From a bacterium (lineage in GTDB: Bacteria; RBG-13-61-14; DATKZS01), in the NCBI GenBank assembly GCA_963674965.2, contig CAXXFL010000007.1:544001-608000 (forward strand): a stretch of 64,000 nt of DNA, read 5' to 3'. The notes beneath the pieces were generated by a model, which ran no database searches, was not told the origin of the DNA, and saw only the letters and a list, made by a program, of their open reading frames with translations. The position numbers and the translations under genes were made by a program. Each line of letters opens with the position of its first letter. Position 1 is the stretch's first letter. Shown in pieces: positions 28,777-35,785 of the stretch.

Positions 28777-29814
28777 CTACTTCCTGTCGCCGGCGGCCTT
28801 CAACAAAAGACCCTTTTTCCTGGGCGGCGGGTTGGGATAATCGGGGTCCCCCACGATCGTGCCCACGTTGATGGTGATGCCCTCCTGTTGGAAAAACTCC
28901 CGGATAATCCGCTCGAGTTCCTCCCGGTCCACGTCGTCAAGCTCCTTTTCCATGCGGGCCGTGAAGCGGTCCAGACGGTCGGCCACGGCGGAGAGGTCGT
29001 CGGCCGCGGCCAGAAGTTCCTCGACCTTGGCCCGGACCTTGTCCTCATCCTCGGGGGCCATGGCCCGCACCTCGGTGAGGGTCTTGTCCAATTTGCGTAT
29101 CAGCCGACGGGCCTCGGCCAGGGTGGGCGAGACCTCATCCAGGGCCGAGCGAAGGTCCGAGACCATGGGACCGACCTCGGGCTTTATCTCCGCCGTGATC
29201 TCTTTTAAGTCCTCCGTGGCGTCGGCCGCGTTGTTGATCGCGCGGCGCAGGTCGTCCACGTCCTCCGGCTGAATCCGGGAGAGGGCCACCAGGAGGTTGG
29301 CCAGGCGCTCCCTGTCCTCGGGCTTTAAGTTGTCCATGAACTTCTTTAGGCCCTCGAGTATGGAGATGCCCTCGCCGATCAGGTCCTCGAGGTTGGGCGG
29401 GTCCACTCCCCGAACCGAGTCGCCGTCGTTCAAGACCTTGGCCTCGGCCGAGCCGGGGGTGATCTCGACTATCTTTCCGCCCAGGAGGCTTTCCATGCGG
29501 ATGGCGAAGGTCGAGTCCTCCCTTATCAGCTTCCTGGCGTTGATGTCGATAAGGAGGACCAGCTCGAGGACGTGACCGTCCTTGGCCTCGGCCGGGTCGG
29601 GTATCACGATCTTCTCGACCTTGCCCACCTTGGCTCCGGCCAGGTAGACGTTGGACCCCGGGTCGATGCCCCCGGCGTAATCAAGGGTGACGTTGACGCG
29701 GTAGGTGTTGGTAAAGGGGTTCCAGTCCCCCAATATGAAAATGAAGGCGAACACCAGCGCGATGGCCGTGACCACCACCAACCCGACCTTGACCTCTAAG
29801 CTGAATCTTTCCAT
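28777..29814 (-). CDS. mlaD: MCE/MlaD family protein
   Basis: N-terminal TM; AGGIDPGSNVYLAGAKVGKV; SLLGGKIVEITPG; long helical tail. Confidence 0.9.
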   Translation of the reverse strand: MERFSLEVKVGLVVVTAIALVFAFIFILGDWNPFTNTYRVNVTLDYAGGIDPGSNVYLAGAKVGKVEKIVIPDPAEAKDGHVLELVLLIDINARKLIREDSTFAIRMESLLGGKIVEITPGSAEAKVLNDGDSVRGVDPPNLEDLIGEGISILEGLKKFMDNLKPEDRERLANLLVALSRIQPEDVDDLRRAINNAADATEDLKEITAEIKPEVGPMVSDLRSALDEVSPTLAEARRLIRKLDKTLTEVRAMAPEDEDKVRAKVEELLAAADDLSAVADRLDRFTARMEKELDDVDREELERIIREFFQQEGITINVGTIVGDPDYPNPPPRKKGLLLKAAGDRK

Positions 29815-29827
29815 ATTCTTGCCCTTG

Positions 29828-30700
29828 TCACGCGAAGCTGAGAACGGCGGTTACGAGTTTATCAGCGATAACTCCGATCGTAAAGTCGATAATGATTAAA
29901 ATCAGGATCGCCGTGACCACCGCCTTGGTGGTCGCCTCGCCCACGCCCCGTGCCCCTCCGCGGCATTTCAGACCGTAATAGCAGGCCACCACCGGCACGA
30001 CCCATCCCAGGGCCAGCGACTTGAGTATGAGGTTTATGAAATCCGGCCAGTTGACGAACTGGTTCATCATGGCAAGGTAGTATTTATAGTTGAAACTCTG
30101 GATGCTGGCCAGGTGCCCCATGATAAATGCGCAAAACAGGCCGATGATGGAGAGGGCCACCTGCATGAGCACGCAGGCCAGGAAGCGGGGGACCACCAGG
30201 TAGTGAATGGGTGACACGCCCATCAGCTCGAGGGCGTCTATCTGGTCGGTGGTTTTCATGCCGCCGATCTCGGCGGTGAACCCGGCGCCGACCTTGGCCG
30301 CCAGCATGGCCGCCACCACCACGGCCCCGAACTCGCGGAAGAACATGATGCCGGCCACGCCGGGGATGAACCTTATATCGTGGATGAGCCGGTCCATCTG
30401 GAAGTCCAGCTCGAGCATGACGATCATGCCCAACGAGCCGAGGGTCACGGCGATGAGGGGAATCGAGTTCCATCCGACCACGACGCACTGCTCGAGAAGG
30501 GCCCGGAAGCGGTAAGGCGGACGGGGAATGAACAGGAGGACCTGGACCAGAAGGGAGACGATGCCGCCCATGGTCTCGAGGAAACCGAGAAGGGCGTTGC
30601 CGATGCCCTCGAAGGTCAGTCCCAGCCGGGCCACGTAAAGTATCTGCATGAGGGCCCGAACGATGGTCCGGACGGCGGGGTATTTGAGGATGGCCGTCAT
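29828..30700 (-). CDS. mlaE: MlaE family ABC permease
   Basis: REFG, TAEIGGMKTTDQIDAL, LVVPR and GVGEATTKAVV motifs. Confidence 0.92.
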   Translation of the reverse strand: MTAILKYPAVRTIVRALMQILYVARLGLTFEGIGNALLGFLETMGGIVSLLVQVLLFIPRPPYRFRALLEQCVVVGWNSIPLIAVTLGSLGMIVMLELDFQMDRLIHDIRFIPGVAGIMFFREFGAVVVAAMLAAKVGAGFTAEIGGMKTTDQIDALELMGVSPIHYLVVPRFLACVLMQVALSIIGLFCAFIMGHLASIQSFNYKYYLAMMNQFVNWPDFINLILKSLALGWVVPVVACYYGLKCRGGARGVGEATTKAVVTAILILIIIDFTIGVIADKLVTAVLSFA

Positions 30701-30701
30701 C

Positions 30702-31553
30702 TCAGCCGAACTCCAGAAGCGACTCGGCCACCTGGAAGGTCAGGCTGGACAGGCCGGCGATGATGTAATCCACGATGAAGATGGCCAGGGAACTGGTGAC
30801 CAGACAGGAGTTGACCGCCTTGCCCACTCCCTCGGTGCCCCCCTCCGTCATAATCCCCTTGTAACAGGAGATGGTTGATAAAAGAAGACCGAAGAGCACG
30901 GCCTTGGCCATGCCGTTGAAAAGGGCCCAGGCCGCGTCCAGGCTCCTGATGCCCGCGAAGTACTTCGAGACGCCCATGTCCGCCAGGATGTATGCCGCCA
31001 GGGCCCCGCCCATGGTGGCGATTATCAGGCCCAGGATGGTCAGGACGAAAATCATGACCGTGACCGCTATGAAGCGGGGAACGATCAGGAACTGGATGGG
31101 GTTGGCGCCCAGGCAGCGGACCGCGTCTATCTGCTCGGTGACCTTCATCGTGCCCAGCTCCGCCGTTATATATGCCCCCACCCGTCCGGCCACCATGACC
31201 GAGACCAGGACCGGCCCGACCTCCCGCAGCAGCCCCGAGGTGGCGATGCCGCCCAGGTACTGGTTGGCCCGGAAAAGGCCGAGGGCGTACTCGAACTGAA
31301 GACCCACGATGGCGCCCACGAAGAGACCGGCGATGATAACGATGGGGACCGACTTGACCCCCACCTGGTAAAGCTGGATCACCAACTCGCCCCACTCGAA
31401 GGGACGCCTGAACATGGACCTTATCACCATCCCGAAAAAAATCACCATGCCGCCCAACTCGCGAAGGAAAGGGCCGAACCAGGTGAACAGGTAACCCACC
31501 AGCAGGAAGGGAAGCTGCCAGAGGCGGTCGAGGAATTTGAGGACGGGACTCAA
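30702..31553 (-). CDS. mlaE: MlaE family ABC permease (second paralogue)
   Basis: REVGPV, TAELGTMKVTEQIDA, LIVPR and GVGKAV motifs. Confidence 0.92.
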   Translation of the reverse strand: MSPVLKFLDRLWQLPFLLVGYLFTWFGPFLRELGGMVIFFGMVIRSMFRRPFEWGELVIQLYQVGVKSVPIVIIAGLFVGAIVGLQFEYALGLFRANQYLGGIATSGLLREVGPVLVSVMVAGRVGAYITAELGTMKVTEQIDAVRCLGANPIQFLIVPRFIAVTVMIFVLTILGLIIATMGGALAAYILADMGVSKYFAGIRSLDAAWALFNGMAKAVLFGLLLSTISCYKGIMTEGGTEGVGKAVNSCLVTSSLAIFIVDYIIAGLSSLTFQVAESLLEFG

Positions 31554-32296
31554 GCTTTGCGTCCTCCCTCGGCCAGGCCCTTTTTGAACTCGAGAACGCT
31601 CTCGCTCGTCGCCTCCATGAACTCGGGCACGGAGCCCACGAAGGAGAACTTTCCATCCCAGAGCACTCCCACCCTGTCGGCCAGGTTCTTCATGCTCATG
31701 AGGTCGTGGCTGACGACTATGGAGGTCGCGTTCATGCTCTCGTTAAGGTGCTTGATCAGGCCGTCGATCTTGCCGGCGGTAAAGGGATCGAGCCCGGTGG
31801 TGGGCTCGTCGTATAAAAGGTACTTGGGGTTCATGACGAGGGTCCGGGCCAGGCCCACCCTTTTCTGCTCGCCGAAGCTGAGCTCGTCGGGCATGCGCTC
31901 GGAGATTTCGGGATCGAGCTCGACGCGGCGGAGGGACTCGGCCACGCGCTCGAATATTTCATCCTCCTCCACGTCTCCCAGCCGCCGGAGGCCGAAGGCC
32001 ACGTTCTCGAACACCGAGTAGGAATCGAACAAGGTGGGCAACTGGAACACCATGCCGCATTTGCGCCGGATGGACTGGAAGTCCTCCTCCTCCCGGCCGG
32101 CGAGCTCCTCGCCGTCCATGCGGATCGAGCCCCCGTCCGGACGGATGAGACCCACCAGCATTCGGATCATAACCGTCTTGCCCGCGCCGGTCTTGCCCAG
32201 GACGAAAAAGGTCTCGCCCTCCTTCACGGCCAGGTCCACGCCGTCCAGCACCGTCTGGCCGCCGAAGGACTTCATGACTCCCTTATACTCTATCAT
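31550..32296 (-). CDS. mlaF: MlaF family ABC ATPase
   Basis: GKTGAGKT, LSFGEQKRV, YDEPTTGLDP and VSHD motifs. Confidence 0.9.
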   Translation of the reverse strand: MIEYKGVMKSFGGQTVLDGVDLAVKEGETFFVLGKTGAGKTVMIRMLVGLIRPDGGSIRMDGEELAGREEEDFQSIRRKCGMVFQLPTLFDSYSVFENVAFGLRRLGDVEEDEIFERVAESLRRVELDPEISERMPDELSFGEQKRVGLARTLVMNPKYLLYDEPTTGLDPFTAGKIDGLIKHLNESMNATSIVVSHDLMSMKNLADRVGVLWDGKFSFVGSVPEFMEATSESVLEFKKGLAEGGRKA

Positions 32297-32362
32297 GTCC
32301 TCGAGGAGCGCGTGACGCCGGAAGCTCGCCGGGCCAACTCGCTTTCCCGCGAAAGTTCGGGG

Positions 32363-33103
32363 TTATGCCATTTCCAGAAATTGCCTTAACTCCTTTCTAT
32401 CGCTTTTCTCGATGTCGCGGGGAGGCCCCAGCTCGATCAGCCTGCCCTTGTAAAGAAGCGCCGCCTCCTGGGCCACCTTCATCACCAGGGGAAGGTGGTT
32501 GGACACCACCACCGCCGACCTGTCCTTTTCCTTGACCTTCTCCGCGATGAGGTCGGCTATAACGTCGGAGGTGATAGGGTCCAGGCCCGCCGTGGGATCG
32601 TCCAGAAAAACCAGGCTGGGTCCGTGGGCGATGGCCCGGGCTATCCCCACCCGTTTCTTCATGCCGCCCGAAAGCTCGCGCGGGTACTTGCCGCCGATGG
32701 GTCCCAGGTTCAACCGCTCGAGCAGGTCGTCAACCTTCTCCTTGATCCGGGCCGGGGGAAGCGACAAGACCTCTTTGAGGGCGAAGCCAACGTTCTCCTC
32801 CACGGTCATGGAGTCGAAAAGAGCGTTCTGCTGGAAAAGCATGCCCACCCGCCTTCTCAACTCCCGCAGCCGAGAGGAGGAAGCCGAAAGGATATCCTCG
32901 CCGAACAGCCTTACCGAGCCATCGTCCGGCTTTAAAAGACCCACGGCCGTCCGCAGCAAGGTGCTCTTGCCGCTGCCCGAGGCGCCCAGAAGGGCAATGG
33001 TATTGCCCGAGGCCAACTCGAGGCTGACGTCCCTTAAAACGTCCCTCCCCCCGAGCGTGATCCTGAGACCTCCAAGGGCCATGGCCGGCGCGGTTTTCGA
33101 CAT
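32363..33103 (-). CDS. mlaF: MlaF family ABC ATPase (second paralogue)
   Basis: GASGSGKS, LSGGMKKRVGIARA and LDDPTAGLDP motifs. Confidence 0.88.
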   Translation of the reverse strand: MSKTAPAMALGGLRITLGGRDVLRDVSLELASGNTIALLGASGSGKSTLLRTAVGLLKPDDGSVRLFGEDILSASSSRLRELRRRVGMLFQQNALFDSMTVEENVGFALKEVLSLPPARIKEKVDDLLERLNLGPIGGKYPRELSGGMKKRVGIARAIAHGPSLVFLDDPTAGLDPITSDVIADLIAEKVKEKDRSAVVVSNHLPLVMKVAQEAALLYKGRLIELGPPRDIEKSDRKELRQFLEMA

Positions 33104-33150
33104 AGGGTAAAATCGTACAACCTGGAGACGCGCCGGTCAATACCCGTCGG

Positions 33151-33888
33151 TCAATAAAGGGTCTTTCTTTCAACCACCTTTCCGATGAGCTGGACCTTTT
33201 CCGGGTCCGTGAAGACCATGTCCGAGTAGCGGGGGTTCAGGGGACGAAGGATGACGATCCTCGAGCCGTCCCGACCCTCGTGGACAACCAGCTTCTTAAA
33301 GGTCGCCTCATTGTCATCCACCAGCTTGGCGATGACGTAGTCGCCGGGAGAGGGCGACAAGTTGGGGTTGACGATCAGCACGTCGCCCTCCTTGAACTCG
33401 GGCTCCATCGAGTCGTTGGTCACGCGGACGCCGAAGAGGTTCCTTCCCTTTCTGTCGGTGTAGACCATCCGGTCCGCCACGCCGGGAGGGTATTCGCCGT
33501 CCTCGGCCAGGGCGAACTCTCCCGCCCTGACCAAGCCCACCACGGGAACGGCCCGGCCGTGGCCAAGATCGGCCGGCTCGAGGTTGTCCAGGTTATCGGC
33601 GTCCTTTATGAAATCGCCCCGGCGCGCGTTTTTTTTGAATATATCCTTGACCTCGCCGGGCGCCTTCTCGTAATGGGCCGCCAGGATAAGGGCCTCCAGG
33701 TCGAGATCGAGGGCCTGGGCGAGTTTGACCACTATTTCGTCGGACGGGACCACCTTGCCCTGGGCTATCTTGGACACGTAGACGCCGCTTACGCCCACCC
33801 GCCGCGCCAGGTCCTCATAGGTAAGGCCCAACTCCAATATTCTTTTCGCGAGTTTCCCGCCGAAAAAGTCCCTCATAACGTCCTCCAA
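33151..33888 (-). CDS. CI/LexA-like repressor (XRE HTH plus S24 autopeptidase)
   Basis: N-terminal HTH; cleavage site VRA-G; catalytic Ser in NDSM and Lys in TFKK; start approximate. Confidence 0.92.
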   Translation of the reverse strand: MEDVMRDFFGGKLAKRILELGLTYEDLARRVGVSGVYVSKIAQGKVVPSDEIVVKLAQALDLDLEALILAAHYEKAPGEVKDIFKKNARRGDFIKDADNLDNLEPADLGHGRAVPVVGLVRAGEFALAEDGEYPPGVADRMVYTDRKGRNLFGVRVTNDSMEPEFKEGDVLIVNPNLSPSPGDYVIAKLVDDNEATFKKLVVHEGRDGSRIVILRPLNPRYSDMVFTDPEKVQLIGKVVERKTLY

Positions 33889-33998
33889 TCCTTTTCAGAA
33901 TAAGCGCTTGCCTGGATATCCAGGCCGCGCGGCGCCTGTCCGCCGATCATGAGTATAGCATAGCTTGACACAAAAGCATATATCCTGTAATTTTCCTC

Positions 33999-34045
33999 TT
34001 GACATTAACTAACATTTAGTTTAGCATCGTTTGCACGGTTGTCAA
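33999..34045. promoter_or_regulatory. Overlapping opposed sigma70 promoters with a central palindromic operator
   Basis: Plus strand TTGACA(33999)-17-TAGCAT(34022); minus strand TTGACA(34045)-16-TAAACT(34023); AACTAA-CAT-TTAGTT at 34007-34021. Confidence 0.7.
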
Positions 34046-34129
34046 GGCCAAGGCCGAAATTATTTTTTTTCCTGACCGACAAAGGCAAGGGGGCAAAAGG
34101 AAAAACCAAAAAGAAAATGGAGGTGTACG

Positions 34130-34513
34130 GTGAAAAGTTTAGATAGGCACAAACTGCGTAATCTTCGGTTATTAAAAGGCTATAGTCTTTCAGTTATGGC
34201 CAGGCTCATCTCTTCCAGGTATGGTTTCAACTTGAGCAAATCGGCTATATCCAACTGGGAAACGGGTCGGACCAAGCCCAGCCTGGACTCTCTGATTATC
34301 GCAAGCGACCTTTTTCAGGTCCCGCTCGACTATTTTCTATCCGACGAATCTAACTGTTTGTTTGATGAAAATATCGGCTTTGACGAGTCGAAATCAACCG
34401 ACGATGACGACGTACATCCAAGTCTCACCAGAATATCGGGGAACCCTGAAAACTTCGCGGCGACCTTGATCTTGGAATCGGCCGCCTCTTCCCCCGGGCA
34501 TATCGAGGGATAG
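34130..34513 (+). CDS. Cro/XRE-like HTH regulator
   Basis: GGAGG RBS and GTG start; LRNLR...SKSAISNWETGRTKP...LFQVPLDYF. Confidence 0.88.
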   Translation: MKSLDRHKLRNLRLLKGYSLSVMARLISSRYGFNLSKSAISNWETGRTKPSLDSLIIASDLFQVPLDYFLSDESNCLFDENIGFDESKSTDDDDVHPSLTRISGNPENFAATLILESAASSPGHIEG

Positions 34514-34515
34514 GC

Positions 34516-34962
34516 ATGCTCTGCCTTGATTGTCCCAATAGGTCATCCTGCAAATACCCATGCCGGAAACTGAGGGAACACCTAAGGTCCCTCGAGGCCG
34601 GCCAGAGGGAAAGGCCCATGAAAAACATCGAGTTGGAAGCGATCCTGGGAAGCGACGGCCCCACCCTTTCCGATATGGCGCCCGATTATCTTCCCGCCAG
34701 GAAAATATTGGACGGAAGCGTTTCCCGACTTCCTCCCAAGCTTTTCGCCCCTCTGGCGCTTCATTACCTGGAGGGACACAGCGTGAGCGAGACCGCCAGG
34801 ACGCTGGGCCTCAACAAGGCCACCGTTAAAAGAAGGAACAAGGCCGCCATCCGCCTCTTAAGGGCCCGCGGACGCTTGGCCCTCCCCGCGGCGGGTCCTC
34901 CCGCGGCGGATGAAAAAACTGGAGGGCTTTGGCCGCGTCGTGGTACAATGTTTGAAGGTTGA
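34516..34962 (+). CDS. Cys4-motif plus sigma70 region-4 HTH protein (lacks sigma region 2)
   Basis: CLDCPNRSSCKYPC; LPPK...HYLEGHSVSETARTLGLNKATVK...AIRLLR; starts 2 nt after the upstream stop. Confidence 0.8.
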   Translation: MLCLDCPNRSSCKYPCRKLREHLRSLEAGQRERPMKNIELEAILGSDGPTLSDMAPDYLPARKILDGSVSRLPPKLFAPLALHYLEGHSVSETARTLGLNKATVKRRNKAAIRLLRARGRLALPAAGPPAADEKTGGLWPRRGTMFEG

Positions 34963-35101: not shown

Positions 35102-35785
35102 ATGGCTTCGATATTGATAGTCGAGGACGAGCGACACCTGGCCGACGGTCTTAAATTCAACCTCGAGGCCGAGGGCTACAAGGTCGACGCGCTCGAGACG
35201 GCCGAGCTGGCCCTCGAGATTTACTCCCGATACGACGTGTTGATCCTGGACGTCATGCTGCCGGGCATGAACGGCATCGAGCTTCTCGGCGAGATCAGGC
35301 GGCGGGACCACAAGTTCCCCGTCCTTATCCTCTCGGCCCGCTCCTCGGAGGGCGACCTGGTGCAGGGCCTCGAGGCGGGGGCCGACGACTACATCACCAA
35401 GCCCTTTTCCCTGCCCGAGCTTATCCTGCGGGTAAGGAGGATGCTCGAGAGGCAAAAGTGGTATGACGAGTCCACGGAGCGCCAGTCCCGGTTCTCCTTT
35501 GGAAAGTACTGGATCGACTTCGACGGCTTCGAGGCCAACTCCAACTCGGGCAAGACGGTCCTTACCCAGTACGAGTGCTACGTGATGAAGTACCTCATCG
35601 AGAACCGGGACAGGCCCGTGTCCCGCGAGGAACTGCTCGAAAAGGTGTGGGGATACTCGGTGACGCCCGAGACCAGGACGGTGGACGCCTTTATCGCTCG
35701 GCTGAGAAAGCTCTTCGAGGAGGACAGGAAGGACCCGCGCCATATCAAAAGCGTCAGGGGAGTGGGATACCGTTTCTTCCCCTGA
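35102..35785 (+). CDS. OmpR/PhoB-family response regulator (no adjacent kinase)
   Basis: ILDVMLP, GADDYITKPF, TRTVD and SVRGVGYRF motifs. Confidence 0.95.
   Translation: MASILIVEDERHLADGLKFNLEAEGYKVDALETAELALEIYSRYDVLILDVMLPGMNGIELLGEIRRRDHKFPVLILSARSSEGDLVQGLEAGADDYITKPFSLPELILRVRRMLERQKWYDESTERQSRFSFGKYWIDFDGFEANSNSGKTVLTQYECYVMKYLIENRDRPVSREELLEKVWGYSVTPETRTVDAFIARLRKLFEEDRKDPRHIKSVRGVGYRFFP

Follow-up and report, generated by a model that had tools for sequence, protein, structure and literature searches.

A conserved chromosomal switch that pairs a LexA/CI-type repressor with an undescribed Cys4-sigma-domain-4 protein in an uncultured bacterial phylum, and its possible link to a gene transfer agent-like particle

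Chromosomal repressors that join an XRE-type helix-turn-helix (HTH) to an S24 peptidase control small regulator genes in several bacteria. In Pseudomonas aeruginosa, the repressors of the PrtR/PrtN (pyocin) and AlpR/AlpA pairs reportedly belong to this chromosomal XRE-S24 type and silence a small activator or antiterminator gene, whose phage-derived targets are unlinked. The PBSX element of Bacillus subtilis, a domesticated particle induced by DNA damage, is said to be governed by the XRE repressor Xre and by Xpf, a sigma-like positive regulator whose gene immediately precedes the terminase genes. With regard to gene transfer agents (GTAs), RogA acts on the core promoter of gafYZ and GafYZ switch on the dispersed GTA of Caulobacter crescentus, according to the excerpt of PMC11150451, and a sigma-like C-terminal DNA-binding domain is tentatively attributed to GafA of Rhodobacter capsulatus in an excerpt of PMC9638019. 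In Streptococcus mutans, a core-genome LexA-like self-cleaving repressor, IrvR, and the small regulator IrvA govern host traits, IrvR being cleaved without RecA in the account excerpted from PMC7101444. Here we analyse a three-gene locus located at positions 33,151 to 34,962 of a 64,000-nucleotide stretch of bacterial DNA (hereafter the window; positions 544,001 to 608,000 of the forward strand of contig CAXXFL010000007.1, assembly GCA_963674965.2). It comprises an S24 repressor gene, a divergent gene for a small XRE-type HTH protein, and a gene encoding a protein with four N-terminal cysteines and a C-terminal sigma domain 4, termed Cys4-sigma4.

Our findings give good support to the view that the three genes are a chromosomal, vertically inherited regulatory module and not a prophage remnant, and they make it very probable that this module serves as a switch, conserved in the core genome and equipped with a private operator. 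That cleavage of the repressor frees a trans-activator of a GTA-like particle cluster encoded elsewhere in the genome is a more tentative proposal, which we consider possible, if somewhat short of probable. The genome that contains the window (G000; 6.5 Mb in seven contigs, C1-C7) was compared within a set of 13 genomes that make up both the class and the phylum of the lineage, 11 of them from the window's order (G000-G010) and two from a sister order (G011, G012). This lineage is known from metagenomes alone: the organism is uncultured and the related records are metagenome bins. Its gene content, with ferredoxins and an aldehyde:ferredoxin oxidoreductase in the window, indicates anaerobic life. 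The three open reading frames (ORFs) described in an earlier note on this DNA were found at the coordinates it gave, and the elements of the locus are as follows.

33151..33888, minus strand: S24 repressor gene, listed as 245 aa, with HTH_3 (2.4e-12, residues 15-66) and Peptidase_S24 (1.3e-20, residues 115-239) matches in Pfam
33999..34027, plus strand: rightward promoter-like site of the HTH/Cys4-sigma4 operon, TTGACA, 17 nt, TAGCAT, with 10 of 12 consensus positions and the candidate operator filling its spacer
34007..34021, no strand assigned: candidate operator palindrome AACTAACATTTAGTT, 15 bp, of the form AACTAAC-N-GTTAGTT, with half-sites AACTAA and TTAGTT
34018..34045, minus strand: leftward promoter-like site of the repressor gene, TTGACA, 16 nt, TAAACT, with TG
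34130..34513, plus strand: small XRE-type HTH gene, 127 aa, HTH_3 2.3e-10, first in the operon
34516..34962, plus strand: Cys4-sigma4 gene, 148 aa, with a CxxCx5Cx3C N-terminus, a helical linker and a C-terminal sigma domain 4 of the extracytoplasmic function (ECF) type

The leftward gene encodes, at the level of motifs, a self-cleaving repressor of the S24 (LexA/CI) type, in which an N-terminal DNA-binding domain and a C-terminal Peptidase_S24 domain are accompanied by an Ala-Gly bond and a Ser/Lys dyad. The bond A122-G123 ('VRAGEF') and the residues S160 ('NDSMEP') and K198/K199 ('FKKL') were invariant in an alignment of five S24 orthologues, whose identity to the G000 protein ranges from 49 to 64%; Pfam and this invariance together bear out, again at motif level, the XRE-S24 repressor with Ala-Gly site, Ser and Lys that had been read from the letters alone. 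Translation probably begins at the ATG at 33876 (241 aa), since GGAGGA precedes this codon and the homologues begin there. In PHROGs the protein matches phrog_4, 'transcriptional repressor' (6.2e-41). Against the canonical LexA model TIGR00498 it reached 43.3 bits for a cut-off of 110.95, with the protease half alone matched. The earlier note had asked for a search for a canonical lexA: three whole loci of G000 lie above the TIGR00498 cut-off (C6:638941, C3:221677 and C6:982536) and a fourth match (C2:124461-125055) occurs in two adjacent pieces, so that this locus may be frameshifted. Given these LexA loci, the S24 protein appears therefore as an extra, dedicated repressor. RecA is encoded at C1:562221.

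The regulatory region between the divergent genes is compact. Within the 241 bp of the intergenic region five promoter-like sites were found, against a mean of 0.9 in shuffled sequences; the two listed above face each other, the leftward -10 overlapping both the candidate operator and the rightward -10. The position of the palindrome is conserved in G000, G001, G002 and G003, which represent four genera or species, and G001 and G003 have the block CTTGACA / palindrome / TGTCAAG at an unchanged position and in an unchanged orientation; in G002, CTTGACA and the palindrome are seen and the extracted stretch stops just beyond the palindrome. G006, from another family, has the same CTTGACA...TGTCAAG frame around a different palindrome. 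A count of the palindrome gave exactly one copy per genome in all four genomes searched in which the region is assembled (G000, G001, G002 and G003), and it is missing from G004, whose intergenic region is unassembled. The repressor is therefore a local, single-target switch, and a unique operator is the expectation for a switch whose output is unlinked. From the layout, we infer a repressor that would use one private operator and also limit its own synthesis. The only operator-like site with one mismatch in G000 (C6, near lexA/uvrB) falls inside a membrane-protein coding region and was rejected. Several shared operators of the lambda type were not found in the 241-bp region, which holds one palindrome only. 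Hence, of the 'CI/Cro switch' proposed in the earlier note, the divergent S24/HTH pair and the overlapping promoters stand, whereas one palindrome takes the place of three shared operators and Cro-like antagonism is more than these data show.

The module is maintained across the order. A complete contiguous trio occurs in seven of the 11 genomes (G000, G001, G002, G003, G006, G007 and G009), and in the other four (G004, G005, G008 and G010) the parts of the trio that were found run to contig ends. Over the 13 genomes, 12 have a full-length Cys4-sigma4 homologue and nine a close S24 orthologue, defined here by E <= 1e-85. The S24 gene of G001 abuts the same Mla operon as in the window, and in G003 a restriction-modification island separates the MlaE/Mla genes from the S24 gene; this insert (L020:5025-8653) includes an MmeI-like N6 methyltransferase, a PIN protein and a 2-thiouracil desulfurase-like gene. 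In metagenomes, where 80 loci with S24 relatives were scanned using the S24 alignment as query, the Cys4 gene lay alongside eight of the nine close S24 orthologues having at least 1.2 kb upstream, and it was found beside none of the relatives scoring below 130 bits. Of the two operon products, the small HTH protein retains 31-49% identity to G000, with a conserved HTH core (12 orthologues share R13, S19, R25, W43, E44, P50, V64 and F69) and a variable acidic tail, and Cys4-sigma4 retains 25-33% across the order. The earlier note had reasoned that a trio absent from this locus in relatives, or present only inside intact prophages, would be just a remnant. The genes are kept in relatives at the same locus (G001, and G003 beyond the island), never inside an intact prophage in the window's order, and therefore do not read as such a remnant. 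Among neighbouring arrangements, a run of trio, sigma-32-like gene and uvrB was observed in G006 and G009, and partly in G008 and G010 (L021:3969-8706, L057, L026). At loci of the f4 type (L056:12021-12932, L073:6681-7613, L075:5420-6328 and L074:1804-2718) the next gene after S24, in the same orientation, encodes a conserved protein of ~305 aa that has an ERHHLRRALKR motif and begins with a hydrophobic stretch.

The product at the core of the module, Cys4-sigma4, begins with MLCLDCPNRSSCKYPC, that is, CxxCPxxxxCxxxC, and Pfam recognizes in its C-terminal part Sigma70_r4_2 (7.8e-9, residues 65-107) and Sigma70_r4 (6.5e-7), together with a weak Terminase_5 match (E 0.056). Sigma region 2 found no match in profile scans, and the AlphaFold2 and Foldseek results cover domain 4 alone. 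The combination of the cysteine motif with sigma70 region 4 only, noticed at first reading, is thus upheld by both motif and Pfam, and the lack of region 2 means that Cys4-sigma4 cannot therefore act as a sigma factor alone. A structural check of the product of 34516-34962, also proposed in the earlier note, yielded an AlphaFold2 model with a mean pLDDT (predicted confidence) of 68.7, confident solely for a C-terminal three-helix domain, where values reach 86-95 at residues ~71-120; Foldseek assigns to this domain the sigma domain 4 fold. The best matches were 3hug, 2h27 and 6jhe, with probabilities of ~1.0 and E ~1e-2, none passing 1e-3, and most of the sigma domain 4 structures matched come from ECF sigma factors, several being complexes with -35 DNA or with anti-sigma factors. 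Residues 1-30 gave neither a family match in profile scans nor a structural match in Foldseek. M1, C3, C6, C12, C16, L23, R31 and E32 are invariant in nine orthologues. In FNR and WhiB-like proteins, three Fe-S cluster ligands are spaced as CxxCx5C; the 14-residue spacing of the four cysteines would fit a zinc knuckle, with an Fe-S cluster as the alternative.

A profile search of 1.84 billion representatives retrieved 253 Cys4-sigma4-like proteins at E <= 1e-10. Among the top 150 matches, 91 proteins measure up to 210 aa and 86 of these carry CxxCx5Cx3C near the N-terminus; the rest of the top 150 are long proteins matched only through repeated region-4-like stretches. At 50% identity, public data yield at least 86 clusters of the family, and its N-terminal part matched no described family in profile scans. 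Other searches returned little: a word-indexed protein search found the query itself as sole match, two family members had no tblastn match among 50,697 phage records, and in viral-contig scans the query P0006 had four weak partial matches (E 3e-4 to 9e-4) and the window protein none. Small proteins with sigma domain 4 only appeared common in several phyla and phages in an Atlas features search, whose results are leads only. Literature searches aimed at other questions brought up no description of a Cys4 plus sigma-domain-4 family, or of a GTA in this lineage. Judged by its sequences, the association of a Cys4 knuckle with sigma domain 4 is a real, undescribed protein family.

The surroundings of the trio are those of a chromosomal gene set, and the flanks are:

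28777-33103: MlaD, two MlaE and two ABC ATPases, on the S24 side
35102-35785: OmpR-type regulator, with a PilZ response regulator, on the Cys4-sigma4 side

The 24 proteins scanned between 20 and 50 kb of the window gave no match to phage, integrase or replication proteins, in agreement with the housekeeping flanks, the Mla operon and the OmpR regulator, that had been recognized at first sight. The small HTH gene starts with GTG, with GGAGG 6 nt upstream, and the ATG of Cys4-sigma4 lies 2 nt past its stop codon; Shine-Dalgarno-like sequences precede both rightward genes. GC falls to 0.46-0.47 across 33750-34500, and GC at third codon positions (GC3) is 0.81 in the S24 gene, 0.57 in the HTH gene and 0.65 in the Cys4 gene, with neighbours at ~0.8. 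The gap of only 47 nt that separates the S24 gene from the first Mla ATPase gene holds a promoter-like site at 33112-33140 (minus strand), so that, short as the gap is, the Mla operon may have a promoter of its own.

For the unlinked output of the switch, a tailocin-type locus had been put forward as a possible target. This is unlikely to be the conserved target, as a tail sheath was found in only two of the 13 genomes, and the sheath of G000 is part of a myovirus-like prophage. That prophage (C6:925001-965000; L148, L149) encodes sheath, tube, baseplate, tape measure and a Mu F-like head protein, as well as a diversity-generating retroelement (reverse transcriptase, bAvd and a target of FGE-sulfatase fold) and an AbiE toxin-antitoxin pair. 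A different set of particle genes is shared by the phylum: portal-like and capsid-like genes are each single-copy in all 13 genomes, and a Terminase_6C large terminase is present in 12. Portal and capsid identities to G000 follow kinship, at 69-77% within the same family, 61-71% within the same order and 53-58% in the other order. In G000 these genes are found at two loci:

C1:111053-124360 (L162:1-4360 plus L161:11053-19909), minus strand: head-tail cluster of 13.3 kb, with portal-like, cement/decoration, capsid-like, adaptor, tail fibre and transglycosylase genes
C2:212156-213559: large terminase, behind methyltransferase-like and ParB_N genes and apart from the head-tail cluster

The head-tail cluster is edged by trpA and an acyl-CoA ligase gene and shows native GC3 (0.82-0.89, with one gene at 0.70). 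The terminase locus (C2:212156-217063; L159:12156-17063) has upstream a divergent radical SAM gene resembling spore photoproduct lyase (SPL) and a 129-aa gene, an arrangement kept in eight genomes; the intergenic region between the SPL-like and methyltransferase-like genes revealed an ordinary strong sigma-70-type promoter only. Terminase, portal and capsid genes are contiguous in G001, G002, G004 and G005. Structural and packaging genes inherited vertically across the clade, with housekeeping flanks in G000, amount to an in silico signature of a GTA-like element, and the cluster is accordingly named here as a candidate undescribed GTA. G000 also carries a multi-copy repeat of ~1.9 kb (L258:3558-4739 on C3; also on C2, C3, C5, C6 and C7), which encodes a ~390-aa protein starting MRWFKHE with a weak Lin1244_N match (E 0.0045); between its promoter region and the DNA preceding the portal gene, 29-43 nt are shared.

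Two kinds of observations connect the trio with these particle genes. In G011 and G012, both genomes of the sister order, the cluster opens with the Cys4-sigma4 homologue, ~400 nt upstream of terminase-portal, with no S24 gene nearby. In the window's order, a shared element heads the particle operons, in which TG(C/T)AAC, 4 nt and TTCC are followed by a hexamer of the TATAG type and by a stretch rich in G and A (G-rich/A-rich). The portal gene has this element in front of it in G001, G002, G003, G004, G005 and G007, and in looser form in G006 and G008-G010; in G001, G002 and G003 the element also stands before the 129-aa gene at the head of the terminase locus. The two copies of G001 are near-identical over ~45 nt, and a 24-nt version occurs in eight copies against none for the control. 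In G000 a variant is found at two sites, its core occurring only there in the 6.5 Mb:

C1:124381-124414: variant of the shared element before the portal gene
C2:217143-217176: variant of the shared element before the 129-aa gene

By eye, a comparable stretch can also be seen after the Cys4-sigma4 gene of G011 and G012. AAC-containing hexamers of this kind resemble ECF -35 elements, as would be fitting for a domain 4 of ECF type. Signal and noise could not be told apart with a crude weight matrix built for the element, and an Rfam scan of six element-bearing loci reported nothing beyond one match below threshold and, at a distance of 855 nt, an RNase P RNA.

From these data the following sequence of events can be proposed. 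At rest, a dimer of the XRE-S24 repressor would occupy the single palindrome, blocking the HTH/Cys4-sigma4 operon and restraining its own synthesis, as the layout suggests. Under stress, the repressor would cut itself at the Ala-Gly bond by means of the Ser/Lys dyad, and from what is known of the family the likeliest signal would be RecA on single-stranded DNA after DNA damage. Joint production of both operon products, the small HTH protein and Cys4-sigma4, would follow, and Cys4-sigma4 might act in trans as a DNA-binding activator, its ECF-type domain 4 reading the promoter-like element at the heads of the packaging locus and of the head-tail cluster; the gene neighbourhood of the sister order and the shared cis elements are what suggest this activation of particle genes. 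The four cysteines could bind zinc or an Fe-S cluster, either as a structural element or as a second, redox input. The trans-acting output envisaged in the earlier note has gained a plausible unlinked target in the phylum-wide GTA-like cluster, on which Cys4-sigma4 would act as a presumed activator or antiterminator.

Several observations weigh against this proposal, and some of them point to a different output. The presumed tie of Cys4-sigma4 to the element and to the cluster comes from neighbourhood and shared cis elements, and the co-occurrence of Cys4-sigma4 and cluster carries no weight because both are near-universal in the phylum. The element itself is ambiguous: the AAC hexamer lies ~12 nt from TATAG, in G000 the AAC hexamer is missing from the site before the 129-aa gene, and the upstream half also heads the ~1.9-kb repeat, with at least seven copies in G000 (93-98% identity) and five at contig ends in G001, so that the element could be a dispersed repeat rather than the mark of a regulon. 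None of 80 viral contigs with a related terminase has the Cys4 family within 4 kb, and one metagenomic locus (L069) has a close S24 orthologue with neither partner gene. The fast evolution of Cys4-sigma4 and the low GC3 of the two operon genes make cassette replacement possible. As regards the trigger, S24 proteins can be cleaved without RecA, as the excerpt of PMC7101444 reports for IrvR. Finally, in family f3 the order of genes is S24, divergent HTH, Cys4, a sigma-32-like (rpoH-like) gene and then uvrB; the sigma-32-like gene, which overlaps the Cys4 gene, reached 257 bits with NF005143, for a cut-off of 241. This neighbourhood would suit the main rival explanation, in which the same switch serves a host stress output as a second SOS-like branch, with Cys4-sigma4 acting on host promoters or RNA polymerase and its cysteines serving as a redox or Fe-S sensor; a ligand spacing like that of FNR and WhiB-like proteins in a presumed anaerobe would also be in keeping with it. 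However, in family f1, which includes the window, the rpoH-like gene (C1:1345404) and uvrB (C6:645431) lie away from the trio, and the f3 neighbourhood is therefore not kept across the order, while in the sister order it is a terminase-portal cluster that the Cys4-sigma4 gene heads. We regard a host stress output as unlikely on this evidence.

A smaller share of probability falls to explanations in which Cys4-sigma4 is not a transcription factor. It might be a packaging recognizer similar to a small terminase, given that in G011 and G012 it lies directly upstream of the large terminase, where small terminases sit, and that Pfam reports the weak Terminase_5 match; or it might be a sigma domain 4 decoy titrating an anti-sigma factor or the beta-flap of RNA polymerase, a thought encouraged by the anti-sigma/ECF sigma pair adjoining the trio in G001. 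Nevertheless, other small conserved ORFs between Cys4-sigma4 and the terminase in G011 and G012 are themselves candidate small terminases (BLASTP found no similarity between the 117-aa ORF of G012 and the 129-aa protein of G000), the family is absent from all 80 related viral terminase loci, the anti-sigma neighbour is confined to one genome, and the best structural matches are DNA-bound sigma domain 4 structures, so that these functions appear very unlikely. The notion that the locus is the decaying immunity region of a prophage, with no present function, would account for the phrog_4 match and for the low GC and GC3 over the HTH and Cys4 genes, but it is close to refuted by the open frames, by catalytic and cysteine residues invariant in at least four families of the order, by the conserved locus and by the native GC3 of the S24 gene.

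The significance of the locus depends on which of these readings prevails. In its fullest form, the activation of particle genes by Cys4-sigma4 would mean that an uncultured phylum possesses an independently domesticated GTA under a self-cleaving LexA-like master switch, with a metal-binding (possibly Fe-S, redox-gated) stand-alone sigma domain 4 as activator, and that the 1.9-kb element copied a promoter to ride on the induction; this entire picture we hold to be doubtful. No more than a handful of independent GTAs have been described, and it is their control circuitry that is most firmly connected with the physiology of the host. Should the proposal hold, it would add a new particle system, found in a metagenome-only lineage, and a clean two-step cascade, open to reconstitution in vitro from synthetic genes, in which a single-operator self-cleaving repressor is followed by a dedicated activator. 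Even without the particle link, the module shows that core genomes far beyond Pseudomonas and Streptococcus retain CI-like repressors that have a single private operator.

Comparison with the described systems places the module among known arrangements. It resembles PrtR/PrtN and AlpR/AlpA in that a chromosomal XRE-S24 repressor stands over a small regulator gene, with an unlinked phage-derived target, here a proposed one; compared by description, it differs in that its output is a Cys4 plus sigma-domain-4 protein accompanied by a second HTH protein and its likely targets are head and packaging genes rather than a tailocin or lysis cassette. With Xre/Xpf it shares an XRE repressor and a sigma-like factor, whereas Xre is not known to have an S24 domain, Xpf is described as sigma-like and not as a Cys4 protein with domain 4 only, and in the window's order the regulator sits away from the particle cluster. 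As in lambda CI/Cro, divergent S24 repressor and small HTH genes have overlapping promoters, but one palindrome replaces the three shared operators and there is no prophage. IrvR/IrvA, as portrayed in the excerpt of PMC7101444, offers another core-genome self-cleaving repressor with a small regulator; the outputs are unrelated, and the case counsels caution about the assumed trigger. The regulatory logic is that of PrtR/PrtN and Xre/Xpf and also, to judge from the excerpt of PMC11150451, that of RogA, GafYZ and the Caulobacter GTA, where a repressor gates a two-gene operon, encoding a DNA-binding protein and a second factor, for a dispersed and vertically inherited GTA. In contrast, RogA is not an S24 self-cleaving protein in that excerpt, GafZ is an antiterminator, the phylum is another and the particle genes are unrelated as far as tested, so that it is the regulatory logic alone that is compared. 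The logic of the circuit is thus known, while the regulator family at its core is undescribed.

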